From: Desulfurivibrio alkaliphilus AHT 2
GTDB taxonomy: Bacteria > Desulfobacterota > Desulfobulbia > Desulfobulbales > Desulfurivibrionaceae
Direction of reading: 5' to 3'
Length of the DNA stretch: 32,000 nucleotides
Assembly: GCF_000092205.1 (NCBI RefSeq)
Contig: NC_014216.1
Span: forward strand, 1,337,742-1,369,741
Position numbers and translations under genes: made by a program. Below the pieces are notes generated by a model. That model searched no databases. It had not been told where the DNA came from and saw nothing but the letters and a program-made list of their open reading frames with translations. Position 1 is the stretch's first letter. Every line of letters starts with the position of its first letter. Positions 1 to 22,342 of this stretch are shown in pieces.

Positions 1-681
1 ATAAGCCGCATCGGGCAGACGCACCGGAGCTCCCAGAAAATCCACCGTTACCGAAGACCCTTTGACCAGCCGGTCACCCATGATGGTGACCACCTCTCCC
101 CGTTGCAGGGCCGCCGTTGCCTCGACCACCCCGCCCAACGGCCCGTCTGTACTGATGATATGAAAGGGACGACGCCCCGGGCGCAGGTCGAAAAAATGCT
201 TGGCCACCGCCTGCTGGTCGTAATGCATCAGGGCATGCACCGGCACCGGCAGCCTTTCCAGATGGGCCAGGGCGGTCTGCCAGTTACCCACATGGGCGGT
301 GAGCAACACCACCCCCTTGCCTTCCGCCACCAGCTTGAGCAACTGCTCGTAGCCTGCGGTTTCACCTGCAAAGGCCCGGTTGCGCCCCATGCCCAGCCAG
401 GCCCGATCCACCAGCACCCGGCCAAAGGAGTGGACATTTTTGAAGGTGGCCAGCCAGAGTCCCCACCGGCTAAGTTCCGGGAAACGGCGCTGCAGATAAG
501 GCCTGGTACGGCGGTGAATCTCCCGGCTGCCCAGCAGATAAACGGCGACCACGGGCACCAGCAGCAGATAGGCCCCGGCAAGGCCAAACAGGCGCAAGGT
601 GAGATAAAAACAGGAATGCCCCAGGGCCTCCAGCCGCTGCCAGCCGCCGCTGCCTGGTTGTTTTTTACCGACGCTTTGCAT
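1..681 (-). CDS. LpxL/HtrB-family (lipid A late-acyltransferase-like) acyltransferase; the C-terminal end lies outside the window
   Basis: Absent from the ORF track because it runs off the left edge. My own minus-strand translation from the ATG at 681-679 is open for all 227 codons: MQSVGKKQPGSGGWQRLEALGHSCFYLTLRLFGLAGAYLLLVPVVAVYLL...VVLLTAHVGNWQTALAHL...VVTIMGDRLVKGSSVTVDFLGAPVRLPDAAY. It shows an N-terminal TM segment, an H-x-G-N-W block and an (F/L)G-x-P-x-x-x-P tail as in LpxL-like acyltransferases. The + ORF 103..702 is its antisense shadow. Confidence 0.7.
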   Translation of the reverse strand, partial: MQSVGKKQPGSGGWQRLEALGHSCFYLTLRLFGLAGAYLLLVPVVAVYLLGSREIHRRTRPYLQRRFPELSRWGLWLATFKNVHSFGRVLVDRAWLGMGRNRAFAGETAGYEQLLKLVAEGKGVVLLTAHVGNWQTALAHLERLPVPVHALMHYDQQAVAKHFFDLRPGRRPFHIISTDGPLGGVVEATAALQRGEVVTIMGDRLVKGSSVTVDFLGAPVRLPDAAY

Positions 682-706
682 ATTCCCAGTCAACACCAAT
701 AGCGGC

Positions 707-1885
707 TCATTTGTCCTCGATTCGGCAGGGAAACATCCTGACCCGGGCCCAGTAAATCAATCCCGCGCCGATCAGCCCCAGCACCGGTCCCACCACCAGG
801 GAGCCCAGCAGCCAGTCCCACAGGCGCAGATGAATCTCCAACAGCCACTTCTCCCAGGAAAGATCCAGCAGCAGTGTCCCCTCGCGCATGAAGTAACCGG
901 CCTGGATACAGAGCACCGGCACCACCGGCGGCATGCAGAACTGACTGGCCGCCACCGCGGCCAGTTTGTTGAGATGCAGGCGATGGGTAACATAGATAAT
1001 CGCCACGGTATGGCAGGCGATCAGGGGCAGGGCTCCCATGAACAGACCGATCCAGACCGCGGTGGCCAGCCAGAGTGGGGAGGTGTGCTCGGAGCAGATT
1101 TTTTTCAGGGTCTGCCAGGGCCGCCGCACCGCCATTTTGGCGGCATTGAGCGGGGGCTGGTCGTCCGGCCGCCGATGAGACAGGGGCAACAAACGCCGCA
1201 ACAGCAGGCGGGTATGAAGCACGGTCAACCGCAGGTTGTCTTTAAACTGGCCGAAATGACTAATTCGCTCACCGCTGGGGGGGTAATGCACCGAAATATC
1301 GACGGAAGCAAGCTCCACCCCGGCCCATGAGGCTCGCACCAGCACCTCGACTTCAAAGTCGTAGCGGCTGCTCTTGGGCTTTAAGGCCAACAACTCCCGT
1401 ACCGGATACAGGCGCATGCCGCTCTGGGTGTCCGGTAGCTCCCGGCCGGTCTCAAGCCTGACCCAGAAGTTGGAGAAGGCCCGGCCGAACAGGCTGGCCC
1501 TGGGCACCGTTTCCTGCACCATGCGCCGCGCCCCGATGACGATGGCCGGCCGGTCGATGGCCGCCGCCCCGGCCGCCAGCAACTCGGCCTCGGCGGGATC
1601 ATGCTGGCCGTCGGCATCAACGGTGATGATTTGCGTAAAACCCAGCTCCCCGGCCTTTTGCGCCCCGGCCATGATGGCCGCCCCCTTGCCCCGGTTAACC
1701 GGCAGGCGCAGCTTGTGGCAATCAAGATCGGTAATCTGCTGCCAGCCGTCATCGGTACTGCCGTCGTCAACCACCAGCACCGGCCAGCCCGCCGCCAAGG
1801 CCCGCTGAACCACCTCCCGCAGGGTGGCGCCATGGTTGTATACCGGCACTACGATAATGGTTTGTCGCTCATCTTCAACTCGCAT
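707..1885 (-). CDS. Family 2 glycosyltransferase fused to a C-terminal polytopic membrane domain (DUF2062-like)
   Basis: The N-terminus IIVVPVYNHGATLREVV...LVVDDGSTDDG...ITVDADGQHDP gives GT2 DxD/DADGQH motifs. The C-terminal ~130 aa are hydrophobic (WLATAVWIGLFMGALPLIACHTVAIIYV...). ATG at 1885; 11-nt overlap with the upstream gene. Confidence 0.8.
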   Translation of the reverse strand: MRVEDERQTIIVVPVYNHGATLREVVQRALAAGWPVLVVDDGSTDDGWQQITDLDCHKLRLPVNRGKGAAIMAGAQKAGELGFTQIITVDADGQHDPAEAELLAAGAAAIDRPAIVIGARRMVQETVPRASLFGRAFSNFWVRLETGRELPDTQSGMRLYPVRELLALKPKSSRYDFEVEVLVRASWAGVELASVDISVHYPPSGERISHFGQFKDNLRLTVLHTRLLLRRLLPLSHRRPDDQPPLNAAKMAVRRPWQTLKKICSEHTSPLWLATAVWIGLFMGALPLIACHTVAIIYVTHRLHLNKLAAVAASQFCMPPVVPVLCIQAGYFMREGTLLLDLSWEKWLLEIHLRLWDWLLGSLVVGPVLGLIGAGLIYWARVRMFPCRIEDK

Positions 1886-3221
1886 TTCTTTGCCGGGGCT
1901 GACGCAGCAGGAAATCCCAGAGCGGCCCGGTATGCCCCATCTCGTGCAGAATTGTCAGTTTACCGATAATTGATGAAACCGGAAAAATTCGATCCTCCCG
2001 CGGGGCAAAAGCGGCAGCCAGCTCCCGGTAGAGTTCCGCCTCCTGCAACTTGGGCGAAAAATAAAAGGTCGGGGTCATCAGGGACTGGTCGGCGTCAATT
2101 ACTCCATCCGCCACCGCCCGGGCGGCCAAGGCCGTACCCGGCAGGATCCGAATGCCGGAAAAGGCAAAAACGATACATTGTTCCAGCCGCAACAAGTTAT
2201 CCAACCCTTCGGCCAGGGTTTTACGGTCTTCATCCGGGCCGCCGAACATGACAAAATGCGCGCAGGGAATCTTTTCTTCCGCGGCCAGCCGGTTGGCGTG
2301 CAACACCTGGGTAAAGTCGAACCCTTTCTCCAGCCCGGCCAGGGTCCGGTCGCAAGCGGCATCGGTACCGATCTCCATGGCCGATAGCCCCGCCCTTTTC
2401 AGCAGCCGCAGATCTTCCCGCTCCAGGTTCTGGGGCCGAAAAAAAGCGCACCAGGGAGTTTGGTTGCCGTTTTTGATCAGCGCCTCCGCCAGGAGCCGGA
2501 AGTGCCCCGCCCCATCGTTGAACACCGAGTCGGTAAAAAAAATGTACCTGACCCGGTGCTCGGCCGCCAGCCAGGCCACCTCGGCCGCCGTCTCTTCCGG
2601 ATCCCGGTAGCGCAGGGAACGCCCTTCGATATTAGGATAGGAGCAATAGGCGCAGCGATAGGGACAGCCGCGCTTGGTCTGCACCCCCATCATCCCGCCA
2701 TGGGCCAGATAATACTTGAGGGGACCGGCGCCGAAAGAGGGGCGGGTCCAGAACTCCAGCGGCTGCTCGTTGCGCAACAGTTTTGCCTGCGGCGGGCGGC
2801 CGGCGGTCAACTCATCGGCCAACCAGGGCAACAGCACTTCACCCTCGCCGACCACCCCGTAATCGGCTTGCAAAAATTCCAGCAGTTGCCGGGGCATCAA
2901 GGAAAAGGCCGGGCCGCCCAGCACCACCGGGGCCGCCGAGTTTTCCCGAATCAAACGCACCACCGAGGCCACTTCGGGGATAAAATCGTTTTTGTCACAA
3001 CTGTCGACGGTATCCAGGTTGCGGATGGAAAGGCCGATCAGGTCATAACGGCTGCGGCGCAGCAGTTGCCGCAAGCCGGCAATGCCGCCGTCGGCCAGCA
3101 GGTCAAAATGATCGGCAGCATGCCCCGCCTGCTTCAAAGCCCCGCAAAGATAGGCCACCCCCAAGGGGTAGACGGGATAAGGCACCACCGCCTGATTAAC
3201 CGATACCAGCAGGCAGTTCAT
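1875..3221 (-). CDS. B12-binding-domain radical SAM protein (class B; lipid-biosynthesis type)
   Basis: The N-terminal Rossmann-like B12 domain reads LLVSVNQAVVPYPVYPLGVAYLCGALKQAGH. The rSAM cluster motif is GCPYRCAYCSY (CX3CX2C). The track start at 3227 is TTG; I prefer the ATG at 3221, 2 nt after the upstream TGA. Confidence 0.85.
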   Translation of the reverse strand: MNCLLVSVNQAVVPYPVYPLGVAYLCGALKQAGHAADHFDLLADGGIAGLRQLLRRSRYDLIGLSIRNLDTVDSCDKNDFIPEVASVVRLIRENSAAPVVLGGPAFSLMPRQLLEFLQADYGVVGEGEVLLPWLADELTAGRPPQAKLLRNEQPLEFWTRPSFGAGPLKYYLAHGGMMGVQTKRGCPYRCAYCSYPNIEGRSLRYRDPEETAAEVAWLAAEHRVRYIFFTDSVFNDGAGHFRLLAEALIKNGNQTPWCAFFRPQNLEREDLRLLKRAGLSAMEIGTDAACDRTLAGLEKGFDFTQVLHANRLAAEEKIPCAHFVMFGGPDEDRKTLAEGLDNLLRLEQCIVFAFSGIRILPGTALAARAVADGVIDADQSLMTPTFYFSPKLQEAELYRELAAAFAPREDRIFPVSSIIGKLTILHEMGHTGPLWDFLLRQPRQRNAS

Positions 3222-3223: not shown

Positions 3224-4495
3224 TCAACGGTCAAGCCCCGCTTGCCAGCGACGTTCGGCTGCTTGCCGGTGGGGAATATAGGTGCCGTCCTGCATCTCCT
3301 TTTTCACCACTTCGCTGAACAGCCTTGCCATGCGCAACGGCTGCGGCACCTCCCGATAAAAAGTGCGCCAGGCATAAGCATACATTTCCTGCAGTTCATC
3401 GGGGGTCATCTGCTTGGGCTGAAAACAGACCTCGGCGGTGGTGTAGCGCCGCCAGTCGCGGTGCAGGATACGCCCTTCCTGCTCGAATTTGGCGGTCACC
3501 GGGGTATGGGGAAAGGGGGTGAGGATGGAAAACTCCGCCATATCGACATCGATTTCCAACAAAAAATCCACCAGCCGCTTGATATAGTCGGCATCCTGAT
3601 TGTCCGGCCCCAGCAGTACCGCCGCCTCAACCCCGATGCCGTGGTCTTTCAGCCGCCGGACCCGGTTGCGGATCACTTCGGAAGTATCGAAAACCGCCTG
3701 GTAGACATACCAGCAGCCGGCTTCCGCCGCCGCAGTCAGCACCTCATCGTCATCGAGGATGGGGTGCGAGATCCATTTCTTCTTGAGCGGCTTCATGGCC
3801 GCAAAAAGCTCCAGCACCCACTCCTTGTCCTGGGCCAGCGAGTTGTCCACCATGAACAGGCGGTTGTTGTCGATCCCGGCCAGTTCCTCCACCACCCGAT
3901 CCAGGGGCCGCGGCCTGAACTGGCGGCCGCCCAGATAAGCAGTGGCACAGGGGAAGCAGTTGAAGCGGCAGCCCCGGGAAGCGTGGACCAGGTCCACCAT
4001 TTTCACCCCCCGGTAAACATAACGGGAGCGATTAAGAATATCCCGCCGGGCCGGGCCGACACTCTCAATGGGCGGGAAATCATGAAAGTAGTTGTATTGC
4101 GCCTGCAGTCGCCCCTGCCGGCAATCGGCCAGCACCCCGGCCAGGCGCCCATCTTCCACCTCGCCCAGAAAGACACTGTCCACATGCTCGGCAATCTCTT
4201 CGGCATGCAGCATGGTGGCAATCCCGCCGCTGACCACCGGCACCCCCCGCCGCCGGTATTCGGCGGCGATTTCCTTGCCCCGGGGCAGCTGGCAGGTCAG
4301 CATCATCGACAGCAGCACCACGTCGGGGGTCCAGTCATAATCCAGTGAATCGACGTTTTCATCGGTAAAACGCACTTCATACTGCTCGGGAATCGCGGCG
4401 GCCACGCAAACCGGACCGTGGGGCGGCAGATGAAATTCGGTCTGTTCCGGAATTTTGTTCCATTTGGGGTACACCAGGGCAATACGCATACTCAT
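3224..4495 (-). CDS. B12-binding-domain radical SAM protein (class B)
   Basis: The N-terminal B12-like domain contains IALVYPKW...VVLLSMMLTCQLPRGKEIAAEYRRRGVPVVSGGI. The CX3CX2C motif is SRGCRFNCFPC. ATGA start/stop overlap with the upstream gene at 4492-4495. Confidence 0.85.
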   Translation of the reverse strand: MSMRIALVYPKWNKIPEQTEFHLPPHGPVCVAAAIPEQYEVRFTDENVDSLDYDWTPDVVLLSMMLTCQLPRGKEIAAEYRRRGVPVVSGGIATMLHAEEIAEHVDSVFLGEVEDGRLAGVLADCRQGRLQAQYNYFHDFPPIESVGPARRDILNRSRYVYRGVKMVDLVHASRGCRFNCFPCATAYLGGRQFRPRPLDRVVEELAGIDNNRLFMVDNSLAQDKEWVLELFAAMKPLKKKWISHPILDDDEVLTAAAEAGCWYVYQAVFDTSEVIRNRVRRLKDHGIGVEAAVLLGPDNQDADYIKRLVDFLLEIDVDMAEFSILTPFPHTPVTAKFEQEGRILHRDWRRYTTAEVCFQPKQMTPDELQEMYAYAWRTFYREVPQPLRMARLFSEVVKKEMQDGTYIPHRQAAERRWQAGLDR

Positions 4496-5076
4496 CCACT
4501 CACAACGGTAAGGGTTAGGGAAATGGCGGCGGGTTCATCCGCCCCTGCCGAAGACGCCACCGCCCCTTGAGGGCGCGGCGGCAGAGCATCATAGGTGCCG
4601 GCCAGCATCAGGTCCAACTCGGGCCGACAGACCAGCCACCGCTCGGCCTCGGCAATGGCGGCGGCCATCGCCGGCGCCCGGCCGGGGAAGATCGCATATA
4701 CCGGCCCCACCAGACCGTAATGGCTGGCAGCCTCCGACAAGGCGATATTGGGCAGGGTATAACCAAAGAGCGCCGGGCTGGCCAAATGGAAGCCGCCCTC
4801 CAGAGTGGCGGCAAAGTCCAGGTCGGTGCTCAGGCAACCGGTAAAGGTGGCCCCGACCAGGCCCACCTTGAGCCCCCGGTCCGACAGGCGACGCCCGCCG
4901 GCCAGCAGCCCGGCCGCAGCCAGCACCCGGCCGGTTTCCACCACCAGCACCCGGCTTAAGGGCGGCATCCGCCCCCAGCGCCCGGGGATTTCCCCCAGCA
5001 GGGCCAGCACCTCCTCCGGGGGGGTGACGGCCAGGGCATAACGGTAATCAGGCTTGGTAACGGAATTGCCGGGCAT
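4492..5076 (-). CDS. Ketosynthase N-terminal-like domain protein lacking an obvious catalytic Cys (possible chain-length-factor/KS partner)
   Basis: 194 aa with weak KS N-terminal-half resemblance (LASPALFGYTLPNIALSEAASHYGLVGPVYAI resembles the region around the KS active site but has no ACxS Cys). Position in the operon and codon usage are consistent with coding. Confidence 0.5.
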   Translation of the reverse strand: MPGNSVTKPDYRYALAVTPPEEVLALLGEIPGRWGRMPPLSRVLVVETGRVLAAAGLLAGGRRLSDRGLKVGLVGATFTGCLSTDLDFAATLEGGFHLASPALFGYTLPNIALSEAASHYGLVGPVYAIFPGRAPAMAAAIAEAERWLVCRPELDLMLAGTYDALPPRPQGAVASSAGADEPAAISLTLTVVSG

Positions 5077-5090: not shown

Positions 5091-5693
5091 TTAAAAGGTG
5101 AAGCCCACCAGCAACTTGCTGGAGTTCAGGGGCTCGTTGGGTTTCCGGCGCCCACCGTTGGAGATGTGGTGGAAGCGGTATTCCATTTTCAGGTAACGGC
5201 TACCCTCCAGGGGGCGGCGCAAACCGATCCCGAACTGATAGTTGCCGTTGAGCCTGGTCCCCATCCCCTCAATATCCGTGGCCACGTAAAGCGGACCGCC
5301 GCCGGCAAAAAAGTAGGGTTGCACCGTTTCCAGCCACCCGGTCATGGTCCAGCCGGCCAAAAAATTTATGCCCACCATGGGCGCCAGGTCGTAATTGGTG
5401 AGCAGATGCACCGGCAATTCCAGCAACAACGAGTGCCGGAGGCGGTACCAGGAAGTCCCGATCTCCGGCCGCACCACCCTTTCGTAGCGCGTCACCAGGT
5501 CCAGGCTCTCCACCCGGGTGACGGTTTCTCCCCAACCGGGATGGCTGGTCCCGTAACCGAACAGCCACGACCAGGGACCGGCCGGCTCTGCCTTCAGTTC
5601 ATCGGCCGCCGCTGGCGACGGTCCTCCCAGAAGCAAAATGGCGAGCAAAATAGCGGCCAGCATCGCTCCCCGGCCCGCCCACCACCGGGGCAT
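5091..5693 (-). CDS. PagL-family outer-membrane lipid A 3-O-deacylase-like protein (acyloxyacyl hydrolase)
   Basis: Signal peptide MPRWWAGRGAMLAAILLAILLLGGPSPAAA. The C-terminus YRFHHISNGGRRKPNEPLNSSKLLVGFTF matches the PagL H-x-S-N-x-G...P-N...S catalytic block and ends in Phe like a beta-barrel OMP. The track ORF extends to 5975, but that extension reads through a MITE and into the next gene; ATG at 5693. Confidence 0.75.
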   Translation of the reverse strand: MPRWWAGRGAMLAAILLAILLLGGPSPAAADELKAEPAGPWSWLFGYGTSHPGWGETVTRVESLDLVTRYERVVRPEIGTSWYRLRHSLLLELPVHLLTNYDLAPMVGINFLAGWTMTGWLETVQPYFFAGGGPLYVATDIEGMGTRLNGNYQFGIGLRRPLEGSRYLKMEYRFHHISNGGRRKPNEPLNSSKLLVGFTF

Positions 5694-5713: not shown

Positions 5714-5864
5714 GTAACCGTTCACCAGGGGTGCTAACCTGCCGGTTTAACGGGCTGTAATCGTTCAGCAGTGCCGCAGGTTCGGGCAAGCAGCCAGGCG
5801 CAGCGTACCCCCTGTACGTAAGCCTGGCTGATCGCCCGAAGATGCGGTGCTGCTGTACGATTAC
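5714..5864 (-). mobile_element. MITE copy 1 (151 bp foldback element, GTAA termini)
   Basis: Starts GTAACCGTTCACCAGG and ends GCTGTACGATTAC. Flanked by the 8-bp repeats TCTTTGCT (5706-5713) and CCTTTGCT (5865-5872). Homologous over its full length to six other copies. Confidence 0.85.
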
Positions 5865-6927: not shown

Positions 6928-7078
6928 ATAACCGTTCACCAGAGGCACCAGCCTACCGGTTTAACGGGCCGTAATCGTTCAGCAGTGCCGCAGGTTCGGG
7001 TAAGCAGCCAGGTGCAGCGTACCCACTGTACGTAAGCCTGGCTGATCGCCCGAAGATGCGGTGCTGCTGAACGATTAC
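6928..7078 (-). mobile_element. MITE copy 2 (151 bp)
   Basis: Starts ATAACCGTTCACCAG (terminal G>A) and ends GCTGAACGATTAC. Flanking 8-mers are CGCAATTC (6920-6927) and CGCAAATC (7079-7086). Confidence 0.85.
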
Positions 7079-12178: not shown

Positions 12179-12181
12179 TAT

Positions 12182-14868: not shown

Positions 14869-14883
14869 CACTGCCTTCCAGTC

Positions 14884-15195: not shown

Positions 15196-15315
15196 GGCCG
15201 CCGCCGCATCGGGGCAAAGTTTAACTCGGCCGTGGAGGGATCATTTTGCCTTGTCTTCAGCGCCGGCCGGTAACGCCCCCCCGGAATTTCGGCCTAACTC
15301 TATGAAAACGTCGAC

Positions 15316-16611: not shown

Positions 16612-16618
16612 ACCAATG

Positions 16619-16768
16619 GTAATCGTTCAGCAGCACCGCACCTTCGGGCGATCAGCCAGGCTTGAGTACCAGTGTACGCGGCGCCTGGCTGCTTGCCCGA
16701 ATCTGCGGCACTGCTGAACGATTACGGCCCGTTAAACCTGTAAGTTAGTACCCCTGATGAACGGTTAC
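16619..16768 (+). mobile_element. MITE copy 4 (150 bp)
   Basis: Perfect 8-bp duplication AACCAATG at 16611-16618 and 16769-16776. The second copy contains the ATG of the downstream gene. Confidence 0.9.
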
Positions 16769-16773
16769 AACCA

Positions 16774-17925
16774 ATGAACGTCTTTATCACCGATCTTGCC
16801 ACTTTTCTTCCCGGCCCCCCGATCAGCAACCAGCAGCTTGACGACTACCTGCTTGGCGCCGACCGTATCTCGACCAAAACCAGGAAGATCATTCTACAGA
16901 ACAACGGCATCAGCACCCGCCACTATGCCCTGGAGCCGGGCACCGGCCGGCTTACCCACAGCAACCGGGAGTTGACCGCCGAAGCCGTACGCGCCCTTTG
17001 CGCCCAGGGCAGATGCCGCCTGGACCAGATCGCCTGCCTCTCCTGCGGTACCGCTTCCCCGGACCAGTTGATGCCGGGCCATGCCTCCATGGTCCACGGC
17101 GAGCTGGGGGCAGCGCCGTGCGAGATCAACACCGCCAACGGGATTTGTCTTTCCGGTATCATGGCCATGAAGTACGGCGCCATGGCGGTGGCCCTGGGGC
17201 TGGCGGAAAACGCGGTGGCCACCGGCTCCGACCTCTCTTCCAGCTTTTTGCGCCCCTCGTTTCTAAAGCCGCCGCCGAACCCGGAAGCGGCAACCGGCAC
17301 CCCACGCCATCCGGCCTTCTCTTTTGAGGCCGATTTTCTGCGCTGGATGCTGTCCGACGGCGCCGGGGCGATGCTGCTGGAAAAACAGCCGGCCGGCGAC
17401 GGCATCAGCCTGCGGATTGACTGGCTGGAAATAGTCTCCCAGGCCCACCACCGGGAAACCTGCATGTACGCCGGGGGGGTAAAGGAAGAAGACGGCAGCA
17501 TCAGAGGGTGGCGGCAGTACGACCATATCGAAGAGGCCCTGGCCCAGGGGTCTTTTGCCGTCAAGCAGGACGCCCGGCTGCTCAACCGGGCGGTGATCCA
17601 AGCCCTGATCGAAGAAAGCCTGCCCCCACTGCTGGCCAAACACGATCTGCAACCCGAACAGGTTGACTGGTTTTTACCCCACTATTCTTCGGAATACTTC
17701 CGAATGCCGCTGCATGACCAGCTGGCGGCCATCGACTTCCCGATCCCTTACGAAAAATGGTTTACCAACCTGAAGACCAAAGGGAACACCGGAGCGGCTT
17801 CATTCTATATCATGCTGGCCGAACTGTTTGCATCCGGCCGCTTGCAGCGGGGGGAAAAGATCTTCTGCTTCATCCCCGAAAGCGGCCGCTTTGCGGTGGG
17901 CTACATCTTGCTTACCGTGGTATAA
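16774..17925 (+). CDS. FabH-like beta-ketoacyl-ACP synthase III family protein
   Basis: Thiolase fold with a candidate nucleophile at TANGICLSGIMAM, then LPHYSSEYF and KGNTGAASFYIML (Cys-His-Asn-like pattern). Confidence 0.75.
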   Translation: MNVFITDLATFLPGPPISNQQLDDYLLGADRISTKTRKIILQNNGISTRHYALEPGTGRLTHSNRELTAEAVRALCAQGRCRLDQIACLSCGTASPDQLMPGHASMVHGELGAAPCEINTANGICLSGIMAMKYGAMAVALGLAENAVATGSDLSSSFLRPSFLKPPPNPEAATGTPRHPAFSFEADFLRWMLSDGAGAMLLEKQPAGDGISLRIDWLEIVSQAHHRETCMYAGGVKEEDGSIRGWRQYDHIEEALAQGSFAVKQDARLLNRAVIQALIEESLPPLLAKHDLQPEQVDWFLPHYSSEYFRMPLHDQLAAIDFPIPYEKWFTNLKTKGNTGAASFYIMLAELFASGRLQRGEKIFCFIPESGRFAVGYILLTVV

Positions 17926-17928
17926 GCC

Positions 17929-18079
17929 GTAATCGTTCAGCAGCACCGCACCTTCGGGCGATCAGCCAGGCTTGAGTACCCGGTGTACGCGGCGCCTGGC
18001 TGCTTACCCGAATCTGCGGCACTGCTGAACGATTACGGCCCGTTAGACCGGTAAGTTAGTACCCCTGGTGAACGGTTAC
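17929..18079 (+). mobile_element. MITE copy 5 (151 bp)
   Basis: Flanking 8-mers TATAAGCC (17921-17928, includes the TAA stop of the upstream gene) and TATAAGCT (18080-18087). About 96% identical to copy 4. Confidence 0.9.
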
Positions 18080-18091: not shown

Positions 18092-18370
18092 CTACAGGGT
18101 GCGGTGTTGGCGGATGAAGGCGGCCAACGACGTTAGCGAGGCCATGATCCGCTGGCCGCTCTCAACGGATTCAATCCGCACCCCGTAGCGATTCTGCACC
18201 GCCACTACGATCTCCACCGCATCCAGGGAGTCGATCTCAAGGGGCGAGTCCGGCCCGATCAAGGGCTGGTCCATAATTGCCGCCACCTCCAACTCCCTGG
18301 CCGGCAACCGGCAGGTTTCAACAATAAGGGGCAGCAGCTCCTCGGCCAGCGCCCGATCCTGACTTTCCAT
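18092..18370 (-). CDS. Acyl carrier protein-like protein (second ACP)
   Basis: [19 protein letters not shown] gives the DSL phosphopantetheine motif. The track start 18394 is TTG; I prefer the ATG at 18370, preceded by GGAGAGAGG. Confidence 0.75.
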
Positions 18371-18402
18371 AAACCTCTCTCCCAATACAGACAAAATTTG
18401 CC

Positions 18403-18553
18403 GTAAGCGAACAGCCGCACCGCATCTTCGGGCGATCAGCCAGGCTTACGTACAGGGGGTACGCTGCGCCTGGCTGCTTACCCGAACCTACGGCACGGCT
18501 GTTCGCTTACGGCCCGTTAGACCGGCAGATCAGTACCCCTGGTGAACGGTTAC
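18403..18553 (+). mobile_element. MITE copy 6 (151 bp, GTAAGCG subfamily)
   Basis: Perfect 8-bp duplication AATTTGCC at 18395-18402 and 18554-18561. Termini are GTAAGCGAACAGCCG and CTGGTGAACGGTTAC. Confidence 0.9.
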
Positions 18554-18603: not shown

Positions 18604-19908
18604 TCATTCACGGCAAGCAGTCAACCGCCAGGCCACCAGCAGGTTTATCAGGCCGAACAACAGCAGCCAGAACAGCCAGATGGCGGCTCCAGCCAGGCCA
18701 TGCCCCCGGACCAGAAGCTCATGAAAGGCGGTCAGCCCCCAGTTCAGGGGTGACGCCACGGCAAGCTGCTGCATAAATTCGGGCATGGCATGGACCGGCA
18801 CCATGATCCCGCCCAAAGCGGCCGCCAGAACGATGGAGATGGAACCAAACATGGTAACCTGTTCGTAACTGCTGCAGGCACTGCCCAGCATCAAGCCGTA
18901 ACCGCAGGCGGCCAGACTGACCACCAGCACCACCAGGCCGACCTCCCAGAACACCCCGGCGGCGGTGAACGCCGGCAAGCCCAGCAGGGGAAAAAGCCGG
19001 TTGCCGATGAGGTAAATCAAGGCAAACTGGAGCAAACCCACCAGCAAATAGGCCAGCATTTTGCCACCCAAAAGGCTTACCACCGCCAGAGGCATACTGC
19101 GAAAACGCAGCCATACTCCAGAGCGCCGCTCCCAAAACAGGCCGCCGCCCAGCGGCAGCACGGTAAAAAACATGCCGAACAAAGCCCAGGCGGGAACATT
19201 CTGCTGCACCACCCCCGGCCGGCGGCGATCATCGCCGCTTTTCGCCTGCTCCCGGAGCCGGAGCAGCTCTTCCGGCAGGGTTTCAACCCCGAAGGTTTCC
19301 TGCCGCAGAAATTCTCCCGGTATTCCCAGCTGTTCCAGGCGGCTGCGAATGGTCTCTACCAGCAACTCCAACTTCCACTCCAGTTCAACCCGGGCCATGG
19401 CCAGGCGCACCACGGTGGCAAGCTCCTGGCGAAATCCCGGCAGCAGGGCCGGGTCAAAAAAGATTTGCAGTTCCAGCGCGGGGGCAATCCCCTCTTCCTG
19501 CCGGCCGTCATGATCTTCAGCCTCCCGGTCGGAGGCGGCCGCAGCCAGTCGCTGCAAACGGTGCTGCAAATCCGCATCGATTCCCGCCGGCAGGATCAGC
19601 AGGCCGCTGTACTCCCCGGCGGTCACAGCGGCTTGAGCCTCTGCCACCCGCTCCTCCGGCCAGACCACCAGCTCGAGCCCCCGGTGCTCCCGGAGCAAAA
19701 CCTGCAACTCCGGGCCCAGTTCTCCCTGATCCCGGTCAATAAAAATCATGGTGCCGGCCCGCTCACCGGTAAGCTCCATGACATTCTGCTGCACCAGGGT
19801 GATCACCAGCACCAGGGCCGCCGGCAGCAGAAAAAGGCTTAACAGGCCGGCATGATCCCGCAAGAGCAGCAAGAGCTCTTTCCATGTCACCGTCAAGATC
19901 CGGCTCAT
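18604..19908 (-). CDS. ABC-2 type transporter permease
   Basis: An N-terminal TM helix, a ~200-aa extracytoplasmic loop, then 5 hydrophobic helices. It lies immediately downstream of an ABC ATPase. Confidence 0.75.
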   Translation of the reverse strand: MSRILTVTWKELLLLLRDHAGLLSLFLLPAALVLVITLVQQNVMELTGERAGTMIFIDRDQGELGPELQVLLREHRGLELVVWPEERVAEAQAAVTAGEYSGLLILPAGIDADLQHRLQRLAAAASDREAEDHDGRQEEGIAPALELQIFFDPALLPGFRQELATVVRLAMARVELEWKLELLVETIRSRLEQLGIPGEFLRQETFGVETLPEELLRLREQAKSGDDRRRPGVVQQNVPAWALFGMFFTVLPLGGGLFWERRSGVWLRFRSMPLAVVSLLGGKMLAYLLVGLLQFALIYLIGNRLFPLLGLPAFTAAGVFWEVGLVVLVVSLAACGYGLMLGSACSSYEQVTMFGSISIVLAAALGGIMVPVHAMPEFMQQLAVASPLNWGLTAFHELLVRGHGLAGAAIWLFWLLLFGLINLLVAWRLTACRE

Positions 19909-19912: not shown

Positions 19913-20707
19913 TCAATCCCGCAACTCCTTGCCGGTCAGGGAGAAAAAAAGCTCGCCCAGGCCGGCAAAGCCACCGCTTTGTAACAACTCGGCGGGACTG
20001 CCGCAGACCACTACCCGCCCCTCATCGATGATCGCCACCTGCCGGCACAACTGTTCCGCCTCTTCCAGATAGTGGGTGGCGTAAACAATGGTCACCCCCT
20101 GCCCGGCCAAGGCGGCAAGCTGCTCGTGGATCGACTGCCGGGACTGGGCGTCGATGCCCACCGTGGGCTCATCCAGGCAAAGGATCTGCGGCTCGTGCAA
20201 CAGGCCCACCGCCAGGTTCAGCCGCCGTTTCATGCCGCCGGAATAGGTCGCCACCCGCTGCCCGGCCCGGGTCTCAAGCCCGGCCAGGCGCAGGCCGTGG
20301 GCAACCCGTTGTTGCAGCCGTTGCCCCCGCAGGCCGTACAGGCGGCCGAAGAAAAGCAGGTTTTCCCGACCGCTCAAACGGTCATAAAGGGCCAGATCCT
20401 GGGGCACAAAGCCCAGCCTTTGCTTGGCCGACGGCGAAGCCGGGCCGCCCTCCCACCCCGAAAAGGAGATGGCTCCACCATCCGGTCGGGCCAGCCCGCA
20501 CAACAGGGCCAGGGTGGTGGATTTTCCGGCCCCGTTGGGCCCCAGCAGCCCGAAGATCCCTCCCCGCGGGATACTCAAGGTAAGCTGGTCGACGGCCGGC
20601 CGCCGCTGGCCCGGATATGTTTTCCGCAGCCCCGCAAGCTCAATGGCAAAAGGCGCTGCGGCCGCTGCAACCGCCCGGGGCGTCTGTTCTCCCTGCCCCC
20701 GGCTCAT
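19913..20707 (-). CDS. ABC transporter ATP-binding protein
   Basis: Walker A GLLGPNGAGKSTT, signature YSGGMKRRL, Walker B ILCLDEPTVGID. I prefer the ATG at 20707 (ATGA overlap with the upstream stop) to the track start 20767. Confidence 0.9.
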   Translation of the reverse strand: MSRGQGEQTPRAVAAAAAPFAIELAGLRKTYPGQRRPAVDQLTLSIPRGGIFGLLGPNGAGKSTTLALLCGLARPDGGAISFSGWEGGPASPSAKQRLGFVPQDLALYDRLSGRENLLFFGRLYGLRGQRLQQRVAHGLRLAGLETRAGQRVATYSGGMKRRLNLAVGLLHEPQILCLDEPTVGIDAQSRQSIHEQLAALAGQGVTIVYATHYLEEAEQLCRQVAIIDEGRVVVCGSPAELLQSGGFAGLGELFFSLTGKELRD

Positions 20708-21726
20708 GGCATGGTTCCCAACATAAACCGCAACCGACGAAAGACCTGCTCCTCGAGAGCGGCACATTGCTCCAGGCCGGCGGCCAGGGCCTGATAGTCG
20801 TCACCGGCGCCGGGGCGACCCTTACATATCCGGGCTGCCATCACGGCAAAATCACGCCACCGGTCACCGGCGGCGGTCAATTCCCGCCCAACCGCCGCCA
20901 ATGGTTCGTGGCCCAAGAGTTCACCGGCTTCTCGCAAAAAATCGGCATAAAGAAAACGGAAACCTCCCCCTCCGGTGCCGATCTCCTCCTGCATCCGCAC
21001 CACATGCCCCAAGTGCAGGGCGGCCCGCTGCGGCCCCAAACGCCGGGGCCAGCGTTTTAAGCGGCGGGCCAGAAAACGGATTCCCCGGACCCCGGTCAGG
21101 GGGAAGGGCTGCAGCATGCCCCGCACCGCCACCCTTATTCCAGCCATGATAGCAGGCCGGAAATCGGGCTTTTCCGGGCGGAATTCAAGCCCGTACATCC
21201 TCCCCTTGGGAGCCAGGGCGCCGGCGGCAAAACGGGCCCGCTGCAAATCCTGAGCAGGACAGCTGACAGGGCCGGGAAACACCGGGTCGCTGATCAGGTA
21301 GTCATCACCCCGCTTACCATACACCACCAGGTTGTGACCGTTGAAATGGAACCGGTAGGCTTTGGGAAAATAGGGCAGCCAGAAGACCCCGGTCTGCAAC
21401 CCCACCGGTATCCCCCGGGCCAGCAGGTCGTCCAGGGCTTTCATGGCCCGCTCGGGATTACGGAAGCTCTGCTCCCACACCCGGATGCCCAGGTTGCCGG
21501 CCAGGCGTTTGATAATCCGGCCGCTGGCCACTCGGTAGGTCACCAGCGGCAGACCGTTGAGCCTGATAAACGGGAAGTAGCCGAAGAAAATACCGGCCCC
21601 GACCCCAAAGGCCATGGGCTCGGAAAGGGGTATGCCGCCATGACTTACCAGGTTGGCCGCCACCCCGCTTTCACAGTGCGCCGCCTGCCTATGTTGAAAA
21701 TCAAGCTCCAGATTCACCGGCACCAT
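20704..21726 (-). CDS. BtrH N-terminal-domain / DUF4872-like protein (papain-fold, ACP-dependent acyl/aminoacyl transferase-like)
   Basis: The N-terminus FQHRQAAHCESGVAANLVSHGGIPLSEPMAFGVGAGIFFGYF matches my memory of the BtrH_N block, with a His-Cys-Glu-Ser nucleophile region. Confidence 0.6.
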   Translation of the reverse strand: MVPVNLELDFQHRQAAHCESGVAANLVSHGGIPLSEPMAFGVGAGIFFGYFPFIRLNGLPLVTYRVASGRIIKRLAGNLGIRVWEQSFRNPERAMKALDDLLARGIPVGLQTGVFWLPYFPKAYRFHFNGHNLVVYGKRGDDYLISDPVFPGPVSCPAQDLQRARFAAGALAPKGRMYGLEFRPEKPDFRPAIMAGIRVAVRGMLQPFPLTGVRGIRFLARRLKRWPRRLGPQRAALHLGHVVRMQEEIGTGGGGFRFLYADFLREAGELLGHEPLAAVGRELTAAGDRWRDFAVMAARICKGRPGAGDDYQALAAGLEQCAALEEQVFRRLRFMLGTMP

Positions 21727-21742
21727 TCTCGATCAATTGCTC

Positions 21743-21893
21743 GTATCCGTTCACCAGGGGTACTAAACTGCCGGCCTAACGGGCCGTAAGCGAACAGCCG
21801 TGCCGCAGGTTCGGGTAAGCAGCCAGGCGCAGCGTACCCCCTGTACGTAAGCCTGGCTGATCGCCCGAAGATGCGGTGCGGCTGTTCGCTTAC
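21743..21893 (-). mobile_element. MITE copy 7 (151 bp, GTAAGCG subfamily)
   Basis: Perfect 8-bp duplication AATTGCTC at 21735-21742 and 21894-21901. It differs from copy 6 at 5 of 151 positions and is in the opposite orientation. Confidence 0.9.
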
Positions 21894-22342
21894 AATTGCT
21901 CAGGTGCCGCTGCACCGCCCAAGTTGCACGATTGCTCATAGAGCGCAGCACGCAACACGCCCCGGCGCAAATCATCCTCCGACACCTTAAAAAGCTCGGC
22001 ATAACGGCGCAGCATGGCGGAAGATAAGCGCCGGAAGCCCGCCGCGCGCAGATGCCACCTGACCCGCCAGACGGAAAAACCCATATACTTGCCCAGCAGC
22101 CGAGGGGTCATCTGGTTGACCACCATATAGTAATGGATAGGGCTGACCTTGCCACCCTCTACCAGGCGGCGGGCCTCAGCTACCTCTGCCCCCAGGGCCT
22201 GCCAGGCTTGCTCGTTAACCACATCCACGATGCCGGTATCAGCGCTGCTGATACGGCAACGGCCACCGTTGGCCGCCTTGGCGTACTGCACCAACGGCAA
22301 ACCGCCGGTAACCCCGGAATGATTACTTTTTTCCTGTATCAT
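21890..22342 (-). CDS. Hypothetical protein, possible XRE-like helix-turn-helix protein
   Basis: SPIHYYMVVNQMTPRLLGKYMGFSVWRVRWHLRAAGFRRLSSAMLRRYAELFKVSEDDL resembles an HTH followed by the usual 'A-x-x-F-x-V-S-x-x-D-L' helix. I take the ATG at 22342 (MIQEK). The TAA stop (21892-21890) is supplied by the MITE terminus. Confidence 0.4.
   Translation of the reverse strand: MIQEKSNHSGVTGGLPLVQYAKAANGGRCRISSADTGIVDVVNEQAWQALGAEVAEARRLVEGGKVSPIHYYMVVNQMTPRLLGKYMGFSVWRVRWHLRAAGFRRLSSAMLRRYAELFKVSEDDLRRGVLRAALYEQSCNLGGAAAPEQL

Follow-up and report, generated by a model that had tools for sequence, protein, structure and literature searches.

Layout of the locus

The window, a 32,000-nt stretch of the Desulfurivibrio alkaliphilus AHT 2 genome, had been described in an earlier note made from the sequence alone. 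All 21 genes listed there were recovered at the same coordinates by analysis of open reading frames, Pfam and NCBIfam, and every gene class named was found. The genes form three units. The minus-strand operon, read from 14868 to 1, contains 14 genes with intergenic gaps of −28 to +170 nt. The divergent plus unit consists of genes for a B12-binding radical SAM (rSAM) enzyme (15316–16611) and a KAS-III-like ketosynthase (KS; 16774–17925). The second minus unit, read from 22342 to 18092, encodes a DarG-family protein, a BtrH_N/DUF4872 protein, an ABC ATPase, an ABC-2 permease and an acyl carrier protein (ACP). The divergent intergenic control region (14869–15315) features a sigma-70-like promoter on the plus strand (15168–15195, GTGACC-16-TATAAT with an extended −10 TG, 10 of 12 positions matching) and a 110-nt palindrome (14883–14992).

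The left end of the window truncates the cluster. The boundary set at position 1 is a window artefact, as in an identical D. alkaliphilus contig (L001) the operon continues with ACP–KS. The window holds approximately the right-hand two thirds of one biosynthetic supercluster of about 30 kb with at least 29 genes.

Genes of the minus operon and its left flank

The leftmost gene (1–681, minus strand) encodes an LpxL/HtrB-superfamily acyltransferase. It is cut by the end of the window, which retains the N-terminal 227 aa only; in the identical contig the full length is 303 aa. The Pfam Lip_A_acyltrans score is 34.7 bits, and the NCBIfam lipid-A LpxL models yield only 19–42 bits versus cut-offs above 200. 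Upstream of it lies a gene for a GT2 glycosyltransferase fused to a DUF2062 membrane domain (707–1885, minus; Pfam Glycos_transf_2, 71 bits, and DUF2062, 49 bits). In locus L083 the two are fused as one 710-aa ORF, and they likely form an ApeJ-like glycosyl/acyltransferase pair. The PlsC-type (LPLAT) acyltransferase (8412–9158, minus; Pfam Acyltransferase, 69 bits) is ApeD-like. The gene at 5091–5693 (minus; Pfam PagL, 69 bits) encodes a putative lipid deacylase, an outer-membrane beta-barrel of the PagL family. It has a signal peptide, a start refined to ATG 5693 and a HISNG motif read near the C-terminus.

Left of the window, D. dismutans (L071) and Desulfurivibrio sp. (L004) carry the gene set ACP–KS–CLF (PF13723)–KR–DH–LolA–MMPL, which is the aryl-polyene/flexirubin core; past ACP–KS these genes are seen in the relatives only, D. 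alkaliphilus itself showing ACP–KS. The KR is FlxB-like (266 bits) and the LolA is LolA2_flexi-like, both under the curated cut-offs, and the DH is ApeP-like. The aryl-polyene-type chassis described in the earlier note is real, and stronger than its author could see, with KS, CLF, KR, ApeP-like DH, LolA and MMPL lying just beyond the window in relatives.

Two minus-strand genes encode ketosynthases with a Cys-His-His triad and both the N- and C-terminal Pfam ketoacyl-synt domains. The FabF-type one (9405–10655), with visible motifs ACAS, HATGT and GHTLGAA, scores 400 bits with PRK09116, under the 470-bit cut-off; the FabB/FabF-type one (12182–13444) is FabB-like at 323 bits, under the cut-off of 630. 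The third (4492–5076, minus; 194 aa) is a truncated, CLF-like N-terminal half. It has no Pfam or NCBIfam match; its profile, compared with PDB, matches residues 94–187 of FabF 1j3n (E 9e-6) without the active-site Cys, and by hhalign it matches the CLF family of the cluster with 97.4% probability (E 1e-11), in agreement with the initial description as a Cys-less KS fragment. ACP1 (9139–9408, minus) has the DSL motif and scores of 49 bits for PP-binding and 75 bits for NF003757 (cut-off 65). The CrtI/CrtD-like FAD oxidoreductase of the amine-oxidase fold (10628–12178, minus; Pfam Amino_oxidase, 82 bits) is far under the cut-offs of both CrtD (104 bits) and crtI_fam (77 bits).

The adenylating enzyme (7075–8403, minus) is a FlxY-like starter-acid ligase (NCBIfam FlxY, 422.7 bits, under the 520-bit cut-off). 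It had been called PaaK-like; that name needs correction, FlxY being much nearer than PaaK (122–155 bits). FlxY itself is a characterised 4-coumarate-CoA ligase (PMC3992019).

The CxxxCxxC motif is present in all five rSAM proteins of the window, and the proposed set of four B12-binding and one SPASM enzyme was recovered, with the caveat that the protein encoded at 3224–4495 is under the Pfam Radical_SAM cut-off (24.9 < 29.5 bits), though it has the motif CRFNCFPC. The gene at 1875–3221 (minus; motif CPYRCAYC) is a true member of TIGR04072 (607.3 bits versus a 360-bit cut-off), the family of the 'lipid biosynthesis B12-binding/radical SAM protein', rSAM_ladder_B12, a marker of "ladderane-type" clusters. 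Its nearest solved structure is that of the Trp C2-methyltransferase TsrM (6wte, E 1e-29), and a D. alkaliphilus protein matches it with 100% identity. The product of the adjacent gene (3224–4495, minus) resembles B12-binding/radical-SAM enzymes, falls in no named family and has a weakly matching DUF4070 tail; Pfam B12-binding passes (33.6 > 32.1 bits). It is one of the two or three best-conserved proteins of the cluster, ACP1 being similar: identity is 93–94% in other Desulfurivibrio and 60–64% in the Desulfuromonadales.

The first gene of the minus operon (13441–14868) also encodes a B12-binding rSAM enzyme (Pfam B12-binding, 98.8 bits; Radical_SAM, 91.6 bits). It resembles HpnJ, BchE and P-methylases and is outside all of these families, the best NCBIfam scores being 165–176 bits versus cut-offs of 481–578. 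Its orthologs (56–64% identity) directly follow TIGR04072 in loci of the Desulfuromonadales, Syntrophorhabdaceae and Desulfovibrionaceae. The Radical SAM/SPASM enzyme (5861–6904, minus; Radical_SAM, 84.6 bits; SPASM, 39 bits) has decarboxylating enzymes as its nearest named relatives (AhbD, NirJ, BlsE), all far under cut-off (AhbD, 168 versus 500 bits), and matches cytosylglucuronate decarboxylase 7vob in PDB (E 6e-11). Putative roles of individual rSAM enzymes are taken from the nearest characterised relatives alone, all of which are distant.

The dialkylresorcinol-type module

The plus-strand gene at 16774–17925 encodes a head-to-head condensing ketosynthase of the StlD/DarB family (NF005293, 560.7 bits versus a 450-bit cut-off). 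Its alignment with StlD 5gk0 spans the full length (E 4.6e-114), with the catalytic Cys kept; its score with the DarB exception model is 425 bits, under 550. The initial label of FabH-like KAS III has to be replaced. In the right-hand minus unit, the gene at 20704–21726 encodes DarH, a BtrH-related acyltransferase (NF053550, 472.4 bits versus 300). Pfam BtrH_N (171 bits) and DUF4872 (188 bits) are both detected, so that the BtrH-N-like description was correct as to the domain and DarH is the better name. The first gene of the unit (21890–22342, minus), with the start ATG 22342 confirmed, adjoins DarH and encodes a 150-aa DarG-family protein (NF053536, 86.1 bits versus 70); it had been left unnamed.

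The remaining genes of this unit encode an ABC ATPase of the DrrA/NodI type (19913–20707, minus; Pfam ABC_tran, 103 bits), whose refined start shares 4 nt with the DarH stop, an ABC-2 permease (18604–19908, minus; ABC2_membrane_3, 97 bits), and ACP2 in the DarC position (18092–18370, minus; PP-binding, 21.8 bits versus 20.8; DSL motif), syntenic with the ACP of dar loci. Given the StlD/DarB, DarH and DarG assignments, a module of the dialkylresorcinol type occupies the right third of the cluster. The earlier note had missed this module.

The Azoarcus dar locus comprises KS, ACP, ABC permease, ABC ATPase, a BtrH-like protein, DarB and DarA. The D. alkaliphilus cluster lacks DarA, the aromatase that usually partners DarB, and the B12-binding rSAM gene (15316–16611, plus; assigned by Pfam) occupies the DarA position. 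The HpnR score of this gene is only 146 bits versus a 650-bit cut-off. Among 62 resolved DarB loci, DarA is upstream of DarB in 45 and the B12-rSAM gene directly upstream in 17, with no locus having both; the two are mutually exclusive across these loci. The rSAM-linked DarB proteins form one near-exclusive clade, and the B12-rSAM–DarB pair is a conserved two-gene unit, observed also in L084, L085 and L166–L168. At least one class-B rSAM enzyme (15316–16611) is part of the DarB module and not of the acyl-chain line; the earlier suggestion that all four heavily tailor one acyl chain is a plausible, putative one.

Conservation and the predicted product

Co-conservation was assessed in 32 species genomes having a TIGR04072 locus with both 10-kb flanks complete. 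The flanking genes recur in 84–97% of these loci, far above chance: GT2-DUF2062, the LpxL-like acyltransferase and ACP in 97% each, KS in 94%, the B12-rSAM gene at 3224–4495 in 91%, CLF and DH in 88% each, and the KS fragment in 84%. Conservation in other genomes, a check set by the earlier note, is thus observed. The core is kept in the Desulfobulbales, Desulfuromonadales and Syntrophorhabdaceae. The three units co-occur across genomes with shuffled gene order: in L085 and L089, rSAM–DarB adjoins ACP–ABC–ABC–DarH–DarG–PagL–CLF–KS–ACP–LpxL–GT2; in the Desulfuromonadales, CLF is followed by DarG–DarH–ABC on the same strand; in L088, SPASM–rSAM–DarB are colinear. On the other side, the SPASM-to-KS module is present in only 53–66% of TIGR04072 loci, and the rSAM–DarB pair is solitary in Trichloromonas and accompanied by ABC and ACP genes only in Ca. 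Electrothrix. The modules are separable, which counts against the reading proposed below.

The ladderane-type link is confirmed by the TIGR04072 membership and by the gene set, which matches the Desulfotalea and Kuenenia "ladderane-type" clusters (Rattray 2009, PMC2649909). The two complete KS, ACP1, the CrtI-like flavoprotein and the B12-rSAM enzyme at 13441–14868 resemble in composition the anammox amxACP/FabF/PDH/B12-rSAM cluster. No product has been assigned, as the earlier note had it, and in reviews as late as August 2026 the pathway is still described as unresolved. The flexirubin-like architecture together with the dialkylresorcinol-type module does suggest a product class, flexirubin being the ester of an aryl-polyene acid with a dialkylresorcinol. 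In outline the cluster resembles the gene set behind flexirubin/aryl-polyene pigment lipids of the outer membrane, with five radical-SAM enzymes built in. Overall, the earlier interpretation stands as to the chassis, the ladderane-type link and the lack of an assigned product, and needs correction in the FabH, BtrH and PaaK names and the boundary.

Several observations count against a flexirubin-like reading. Neither this cluster nor any syntenic one has an observed product. The FlxY, FlxB, LolA2 and DarB exception scores are all under the curated cut-offs. The window and the flanks examined contain no gene for starter supply, such as one for a tyrosine ammonia-lyase or chorismatase, so that an aromatic starter is a putative one. 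For the syntenic Desulfotalea psychrophila, C31:8/9 hydrocarbons were reported, with neither pigment nor ladderane described.

Gene identities, family assignments, synteny and co-conservation are shown by the analysis, while the chemistry at each step and the nature of the product are inferred. The FlxY-like ligase would activate a starter acid, probably aromatic, and hand it to an ACP. KS/CLF, the FabG-like ketoreductase and the ApeP-like dehydratase, encoded just left of the window as seen in relatives, would elongate it, with no enoyl reduction, to a polyenoyl-ACP with conjugated double bonds. The two Cys-His-His ketosynthases, ACP1, the CrtI-like flavoprotein and the B12-rSAM enzyme at 13441–14868 may constitute a parallel chain-building and tailoring line. 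DarB would join two thioesters of fatty-acyl origin head to head, forming a carboxy-cyclohexanedione, with the B12-rSAM enzyme at 15316–16611, perhaps together with the decarboxylase-like SPASM enzyme, substituting for the DarA aromatase. DarH, as a BtrH-type ACP-dependent acyltransferase, with DarG and ACP2 would couple the acyl chain to the DarB-derived head group, and the ABC-2 pump would carry the product across the inner membrane.

The chains of aryl-polyene lipids are linked to glycerol-phosphate-GalNAc by ApeD and ApeJ, and ApeL/ApeM are responsible for export. A similar glycerol-phosphate-sugar anchor may be made here by the PlsC-like acyltransferase together with the GT2-DUF2062/LpxL-like pair, LolA and MMPL would bring the product to the outer membrane, and the PagL-like barrel may trim it. 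Finally, the TIGR04072 enzyme, whose closest relatives TsrM and BzaD are methylases of sp2 carbons, may act with the enzyme at 3224–4495 to methylate carbons of the aryl or polyene moiety, a task that an ordinary SAM methyltransferase performs in aryl-polyene clusters.

The cluster is a further example of a known, uncharacterised kind described since 2009. With a probability slightly above one half (about 0.55), its product in D. alkaliphilus would be a cell-bound, flexirubin-like polyene lipid that is tailored by radical-SAM enzymes and exported to the outer membrane.

Layout and extent of the cluster

The layout of three transcription units was reproduced by ORF calling and translation. The minus-strand operon starts at the ATG at 14868, runs to the window edge and contains 14 tightly packed genes with gaps of −28 to +170 nt; the plus-strand unit (15316–17925) has two genes, and the right minus-strand unit, from the ATG at 22342 to 18092, has five. 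The G+C content is about 0.60–0.65 across the cluster and 0.55–0.60 in parts of the rest of the window. The right boundary at 22342 is correct, since the genes from about 22.4 kb on are housekeeping or unrelated: those for an AP2-domain protein and MazG, then rpsF, rpsR, a gene for a DUF2232 protein, rplI and dnaB and, further right, a gene for a YfaZ-like outer-membrane protein, nadD, proA and proB. The AP2 DNA-binding-domain protein (22603–23361, minus strand; 252 aa, domain score 45 bits), which adjoins the boundary, has a Lys/Ala-rich, histone-H1-like C-terminal tail and is not kept beside the cluster in the other loci examined. Two ORFs of this region, 25875–27362 on the minus strand (495 aa) and 30301–31515 on the plus strand (404 aa), are antisense to rplI/dnaB and to proA, respectively. 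Both are rich in Gly, His and Gln and lack family support; most likely they are high-GC shadow ORFs and not genes, and the first was rejected as spurious.

The left edge, which the earlier note had placed at the start of the window, is only the point where the operon is cut. In a 100%-identical D. alkaliphilus contig (L001) the LpxL-like acyltransferase gene is complete (303 aa) and is followed by ACP and KS genes. In D. dismutans (L071) and a Desulfurivibrio metagenome-assembled genome (L004) all 13 shared genes are present in unchanged order, and the operon goes on with genes for an ACP, a KS, a Cys-less CLF (Pfam Ketoacyl-synt_2, PF13723), a FabG-type KR, an ApeP-like dehydratase, a LolA-like protein, an MMPL transporter and a 185-aa protein. 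The KR scores 266 bits with the FlxB model (cut-off 340), and the LolA-like protein 84 bits with LolA2_flexi (cut-off 125). The ApeP-like match is weak in L071 (21.6 bits, below the cut-off of 27), and E-values of at most 1e-5 are obtained in L084 and L168, two further loci. This set is the core of aryl-polyene and flexirubin clusters. In D. alkaliphilus itself the left flank is confirmed for the ACP and KS genes; the genes beyond them, with CLF, KR and dehydratase directly left of the window position, were read in L071 and L004, not in D. alkaliphilus, where their presence is predicted from these relatives. As the operon of the relatives continues past the window edge, the complete cluster would span about 30 kb and comprise at least 29 genes, the part beyond ACP–KS again by analogy with the relatives. 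The transferases of aryl-polyene and flexirubin clusters lie in the window (PlsC-like acyltransferase, GT2-DUF2062 and LpxL-like acyltransferase), and the LolA carrier and MMPL exporter are found in L071 and in 75–78% of the complete loci.

All gene classes named from the sequence alone were recovered by Pfam and NCBIfam: four B12-binding/radical-SAM proteins, one radical-SAM/SPASM protein, two full KS, two ACPs, an amine-oxidase-fold CrtI-like flavoprotein, an AMP-binding enzyme, acyltransferases of the PlsC and Lip_A_acyltrans types, GT2-DUF2062, PagL, BtrH_N/DUF4872, and an ABC-2 permease with its ATPase. The CxxxCxxC motif is present in five of the five radical-SAM proteins, the Cys, His and His motifs are visible in both full KS proteins, and the PagL-like barrel carries an HISNG motif. 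The 194-aa ORF 4492–5076 has no match in the Pfam and NCBIfam libraries. The profile of its 14 orthologues matches the CLF family of the cluster itself (hhalign 97.4%, E 1e-11) and residues 94–187 of FabF 1j3n (E 9e-6), with no Cys at the active-site position; hence it was rightly called a Cys-less KS fragment. Overall, the interpretation in the earlier note was largely right and yet incomplete, as its boundary was truncated, it lacked the dialkylresorcinol module, and several of its gene names need refining.

One of these names is that of the adenylating enzyme at 7075–8403. The PaaK identity was rejected at 122–155 bits against cut-offs of 646–700; the best family by far is FlxY (423 bits, cut-off 520), the biochemically characterised 4-coumarate-CoA ligase of flexirubin synthesis (PMC3992019). 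Other narrow identities failed similarly: BchE, HpnJ or P-methylase for the B12-rSAM protein 13441–14868 (165–176 bits against cut-offs of 481–578), CrtI or CrtD for the flavoprotein 10628–12178 (77–104 against 238–550), and AhbD or NirJ for the SPASM enzyme 5861–6904 (113–168 against at least 500), whose nearest relatives, AhbD, NirJ and BlsE, all decarboxylate. For the product of 1–681 an identity as LpxL/HtrB lipid A late acyltransferase was rejected (19.5–19.9 bits, cut-offs 273–439); only the superfamily domain PF03279 is matched. The B12-rSAM gene 3224–4495 (minus strand) belongs to no named NCBIfam family, scores below the Pfam Radical_SAM cut-off and is always accompanied by the Cys-less KS half directly upstream. 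Its product is among the two or three most conserved proteins of the set, with ACP1 comparable: the identity is 93–94% within Desulfurivibrio (83–84% for the TIGR04072 protein) and 60–64% to the Desulfuromonadales.

The intergenic regions contain a REP-like palindrome of about 100–115 nt, with arms of 38–46 nt that are 82–91% complementary and a loop of 21–24 nt. Its seven copies (5761–5860, 6975–7074, 14883–14992, 16619–16725, 17926–18039, 18400–18513 and 21790–21889) fill every intergenic gap of the cluster of at least 160 nt. With up to three mismatches allowed, an arm 20-mer has 13 matches (0.02 expected), all of them outside 21.9–32 kb. The copy at 14883–14992, which folds with −103 kcal/mol (z = −12), is separated by 15 nt from the start codon of the first gene in the minus operon. 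In none of the 168 loci fetched does the exact 20-mer occur, and D. dismutans lacks a gap where PagL and SPASM adjoin; the element thus has the appearance of an invader that is recent and specific to this lineage. Rfam contains no match to it, and a search of the window with Rfam yielded no riboswitches, the cobalamin riboswitch included, and no other RNA families. A near-consensus sigma-70-type promoter (GTGACC–16 nt–TATAAT, extended −10 TG) is located at 15168–15195 on the plus strand, about 120 nt upstream of the rSAM–DarB unit, and is the only such match in 9 kb.

DarB and its radical-SAM partner

The 16774–17925 gene had been described as a FabH-like KAS III, but belongs to the StlD/DarB family. 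The protein scores 560.7 bits with the family model NF005293 (cut-off 450), while FabH, at 61–87 bits, was rejected. Aligned with the solved StlD 5gk0 (E 4.6e-114), it matches over the full length at about 50% identity and keeps the catalytic Cys; it falls below the narrower DarB "exception" model (425 bits, cut-off 550). The first gene of the right minus unit (22342 to 18092) passes the DarG-family model (86 bits, cut-off 70), and the product called BtrH-N-like, whose BtrH_N/DUF4872 domain is confirmed, can be identified further as DarH (472 bits, cut-off 300). Together with ACP2 and the ABC-2 permease and ATPase, these genes form a dialkylresorcinol-type module, which had been overlooked.

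The aromatase DarA was not found in the window by tblastn with three DarA sequences. DarA sequences match no Pfam or NCBIfam model and have no solved homologue; they were identified by the names that NCBI gives to proteins clustered with them at 90% identity. In the survey anchored at DarB (80 metagenome and 2 genome loci), 66 loci had at least 900 nt upstream of DarB. The gene directly upstream encodes an approximately 310-aa flavodoxin-like protein in 45 of these 66, and this protein is DarA, as its cluster-mates are named "dialkylrecorsinol condensing enzyme" at NCBI. In 17 loci it is a homologue of the B12-rSAM gene 15316–16611 (49–64% identity), in four it is neither, and DarA and the radical-SAM gene together are seen in none. 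Three more loci were found from the radical-SAM side, in Ca. Electrothrix scaldis, Trichloromonas and one further genome, and in all of them DarB starts 3–22 nt after the radical-SAM gene. In the neighbour-joining tree, 20 of the 21 rSAM-linked DarBs fall in one block, with only unknown-class loci interspersed. Both classes, DarA-linked and rSAM-linked, are accompanied by DarG–DarH–ABC–ACP.

Some homologues of 15316–16611 are labelled "hopanoid C-3 methylase" in public annotations, which both the scores and the context contradict: HpnR (TIGR04367) was rejected at 146.5 bits against a cut-off of 650, and the neighbour is DarB, not hopanoid genes. In the loci L084–L168, those of cable bacteria (Ca. 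Electrothrix) and Trichloromonas included, these homologues are always situated immediately upstream of a DarB gene.

The module is close to the DarAB/StlCD pathways and to the dar locus of Azoarcus BH72 for arcuflavin (PMC3949708, PMC6836626), with which it shares the DarB/StlD ketosynthase and, in one neighbourhood with DarB, an ACP, an ABC permease and ATPase and a BtrH-like protein. It differs in the lack of DarA/StlC, the place directly before DarB being taken in every case by a B12-rSAM gene, and in DarB itself, which falls in a clade of its own. In the literature, "DarA-less" DarBs are mentioned for cyanobacteria only. Neither papers linking dialkylresorcinol genes with radical-SAM enzymes, nor the mutually exclusive partnership of DarB with DarA or a B12-rSAM, nor papers defining the NCBIfam names DarG and DarH were found in the literature searched. 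The pairing of DarB with a B12-rSAM is the most original element of the cluster.

The module might have nothing to do with the rest of the cluster. In that case the region would be a lipid "island" of three adjacent independent pathways: an aryl-polyene-like outer-membrane lipid on the left, a fatty acid modified by the KS–CrtI–KS–B12-rSAM genes, and a free dialkylresorcinol or cyclohexanedione signal or antibiotic made by the DarB module and exported by the ABC transporter. Indeed, 53–66% of the TIGR04072 loci contain the SPASM-to-KS_b module, and 16% have DarH at a distance of at most 10 kb; the rSAM–DarB pair stands alone in the L167 locus, and its sole companions in L166 are ABC and ACP genes; Chitinophaga has its dar genes in one locus and its flx genes in another (PMC3992019), and dialkylresorcinols are free signals in other bacteria. 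However, the Desulfuromonadales embed DarG–DarH–ABC directly after the CLF gene on the same strand, in loci L085 and L089 the same genes abut PagL–CLF–KS–ACP–LpxL–GT2, and rSAM–DarB is preceded by the SPASM gene in L088 and by GT2-DUF2062 in L090. Moreover, a 447-nt divergent control region is common to the units in the window, and DarH, a predicted ACP-dependent acyltransferase, needs an acyl donor line. Independence of the three pathways is unlikely.

TIGR04072 and the ladderane-type clusters

The product of 1875–3221 is a full member of TIGR04072 (607.3 bits, cut-off 360, residues 5–441 of 450), named "lipid biosynthesis B12-binding/radical SAM protein" with the short name rSAM_ladder_B12. 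It scores 58.7 bits with Pfam B12-binding and 64 bits with Radical_SAM and has the motif CPYRCAYC at residue 186. This NCBIfam family was built around the Kuenenia/Desulfotalea clusters; no publication on it was found in the literature searched. The nearest characterised relatives of the family are TsrM (PDB 6wte, E 1e-29) and BzaD (187 bits), both of which methylate sp2 carbons.

TIGR04072 was scanned for in one genome per species, and 355 loci encode a relative. The best 80 of these were examined; D. alkaliphilus AHT2 is not among them. Most come from the Desulfobulbales, Desulfuromonadales/Geobacteraceae and Syntrophorhabdaceae, and the Alphaproteobacteria and Desulfovibrionaceae contribute single cases. 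Neighbours were counted in the 32 TIGR04072 loci with both 10-kb flanks complete. GT2-DUF2062, the LpxL-like acyltransferase and ACP are present in 97% of them, KS in 94%, the second B12-rSAM (of the 3224–4495 type) in 91%, CLF and dehydratase in 88%, the KS fragment in 84%, LolA in 78%, MMPL in 75% and KR in 72%; the block of SPASM, FlxY-like ligase, PlsC-type acyltransferase, ACP, KS and CrtI-like genes is found in 53–66%. Co-conservation is seen at 84–97% for the core. The gene order is reshuffled between bacterial orders: in the Desulfuromonadales the radical-SAM gene of the 13441–14868 type directly follows TIGR04072, GT2-DUF2062 is fused to an acyltransferase, and DarG–DarH–ABC–ABC follows CLF on the same strand. 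One TIGR04072 locus (L046) is on a contig binned as "Promethearchaeota archaeon"; its identity of 54% is Desulfobulbales-like, and the archaeal label is probably a binning error. Others are on a "Rhizobiaceae" contig (L059) and, in a different gene context, in the alphaproteobacterium Terasakiella (L063).

The ladderane-type resemblance pointed out in the earlier note is borne out by the membership of 1875–3221 in TIGR04072 and by the Desulfotalea-type gene set, which is also present in a Desulfotalea metagenome-assembled genome (L018). Striking synteny has been described between K. stuttgartiensis and Desulfotalea psychrophila for genes of SAM-radical enzymes, phytoene-dehydrogenase-like proteins, a "phenylacetyl-CoA ligase", a glycosyltransferase, a membrane transporter and Cys-less FabF paralogues (Rattray et al. 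2009, PMC2649909). Like these extended FAS II clusters of D. psychrophila, Geobacter and K. stuttgartiensis, the one considered here contains a TIGR04072-class B12-rSAM, a phytoene-desaturase-like flavoprotein, several FabF paralogues, of which one lacks the catalytic Cys, a glycosyltransferase, a "phenylacetyl-CoA-ligase-like" enzyme and, as predicted from the relatives, an MMPL-like membrane protein. In addition, the window shows the DarB/DarG/DarH module, which is not discussed in that paper (PMC2649909). The ACP–KS–CrtI-like–KS–B12-rSAM segment (9139–14868) has the composition of the anammox-specific amxACP/FabF/PDH/B12-rSAM cluster (PMC10139942); no FabZ gene was found in the window. The comparison is made at the level of family membership and published synteny, and adds a member from a related family, the Desulfurivibrionaceae. 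Since reviews of 2023 (PMC10139942) and August 2026 report neither the ladderane pathway nor any enzyme of such clusters as established, this is a further member of a kind described since 2009 and not characterised.

In D. psychrophila no ladderanes were found, only C31:8/9 hydrocarbons (PMC2649909), and a route of the kind suggested by Rattray et al. could be considered, in which the CrtI-like desaturase and the radical-SAM enzymes add double bonds to FAS II products without oxygen, followed by incorporation in membrane lipids or decarboxylation. The synteny with L018 and other Desulfotalea-type loci, the occurrence of these hydrocarbons in a bacterium without a pfa-type PUFA synthase, and the position of the flavoprotein gene between two KS genes agree with this. 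On the other hand, by aryl-polyene biochemistry, KS/CLF, KR and DH without an enoyl reductase yield conjugated rather than methylene-interrupted polyenes, no PUFA was formed when the anammox genes were expressed heterologously (PMC10139942), and the aromatic-acid-type ligase, DarB/DarG/DarH and the outer-membrane export by LolA/MMPL are left unexplained, so that such a route is distinctly improbable. Least probable of all, and very much so, is a ladderane-like, polycyclic or bridged lipid, functionally related to anammox ladderane synthesis, whose chain is cyclised or cross-linked by the radical-SAM enzymes: the TIGR04072 member is shared with clusters proposed for ladderane synthesis and the ACP–KS–CrtI–KS–B12-rSAM composition with the anammox amxACP/FabF/PDH/B12-rSAM cluster (PMC10139942), and 13441–14868 is as near to the cyclase BchE and to HpnJ as to methylases, but no ladderanes were found in the syntenic D. 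psychrophila (PMC2649909), the anammox-specific cluster is said to occur in ladderane producers only (PMC10139942), and the closest characterised relatives of TIGR04072, TsrM and BzaD, are methyltransferases.

Predicted pathway and implications

Flexirubins are aryl-polyene acids esterified to a dialkylresorcinol; hence the combined gene content is, by analogy, flexirubin-like. Like the flx and dar clusters of Chitinophaga pinensis and Flavobacterium johnsoniae (PMC3992019), the cluster has a FlxY-like, putative starter ligase, a PlsC-type acyltransferase and a glycosyltransferase, as well as DarB, DarG, DarH, an ACP and an ABC transporter. Predicted from L071 and L004, and likewise shared, are a type II KS/CLF, a FlxB-like KR, a dehydratase with no enoyl reductase beside it, a LolA2-like carrier and an exporter. 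FlxY, FlxB, LolA2 and flexirubin-DarG all score below the equivalog cut-offs. Further differences are that the tyrosine ammonia-lyase FlxA was not seen in the window or the fetched flanks, a B12-rSAM is in the place of DarA, a CrtI-like flavoprotein, two more KS and the five radical-SAM enzymes are added, and the host is a strictly anaerobic member of the Desulfobacterota. With the aryl-polyene clusters of E. coli CFT073 and Xenorhabdus doucetiae (10.1101/2020.12.19.423268; PMC8253772), whose product is in the outer membrane, it shares at least two ACPs, a putative starter-adenylating enzyme, an LPLAT resembling ApeD and a GT/acyltransferase resembling ApeJ; judging by L071 and L004, a KS with a Cys-less CLF, a KR, an ApeP-like dehydratase, a LolA-like protein and an MMPL/RND exporter would be common to both as well. 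Unlike in those clusters, a class-I SAM methyltransferase (ApeB) and a thioesterase (ApeK) were not seen in the fetched DNA, the transferase genes are parted from the others by TIGR04072, the second B12-rSAM and an additional KS half, and a dialkylresorcinol module is attached.

A pathway can be drawn by analogy with flexirubin, arcuflavin and the structurally solved aryl-polyene lipids. In the latter, ApeD and ApeJ attach a conjugated fatty acid and an aryl polyene to glycerol-phosphate-GalNAc, and ApeL/ApeM serve for export (10.1101/2020.12.19.423268; PMC8253772). In the proposed scheme, the FlxY-like ligase would prime the ACP, KS/CLF, KR and DH would build a conjugated polyenoyl chain, the PlsC-like and GT2-DUF2062/LpxL-like transferases would build the anchor, and LolA and MMPL would carry the product to the outer membrane, where the PagL-like barrel may deacylate it. 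DarB would convert two fatty-acyl thioesters to a carboxy-cyclohexanedione, and its radical-SAM partner would take over or alter the decarboxylative aromatisation performed by DarA. The SPASM enzyme (5861–6904) may help, since its relatives AhbD, NirJ and BlsE decarboxylate and its gene is directly upstream of rSAM–DarB in L088. DarH, from the family of the ACP-dependent acyltransferase BtrH, is the obvious candidate for joining the acyl chain to the ring. For TIGR04072 we favour C-methylation of the aryl or polyene part, again by analogy, because TsrM and BzaD are the nearest relatives and no ordinary methyltransferase was seen in the fetched DNA.

The widest reading of the data goes beyond methylation. 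The B12-rSAM enzymes, TIGR04072 above all, would forge C–C bonds on the conjugated polyenoyl chain, the Desulfobulbales and Geobacter relatives would make an undiscovered class of outer-membrane lipids with polycyclic or cross-linked structures, anammox ladderanes would be formed by catalysts from the same family, and the B12-rSAM/DarB pair, which cable bacteria carry at least, would be an oxygen-independent substitute for DarA-type aromatisation. Taken jointly, these propositions are highly doubtful.

The cluster type is familiar to specialists: genome-mining tools flag such clusters as "ladderane", "arylpolyene" or "resorcinol" across anoxic environments, and since 2009 they have been the sole genomic lead to ladderane biosynthesis. 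The present analysis makes the question of their product more directly testable and offers cultivable, non-anammox hosts for the study of TIGR04072. The flexirubin/aryl-polyene architecture with radical-SAM substitutions leads to the prediction that the outer membrane contains a polyene ester or glycolipid which stays bound to the cell. Finally, the partnership of DarB with a B12-rSAM, found in cable bacteria and in numerous Desulfobacterota from sediments, hints that radical-SAM enzymes dependent on cobalamin may catalyse a new reaction.
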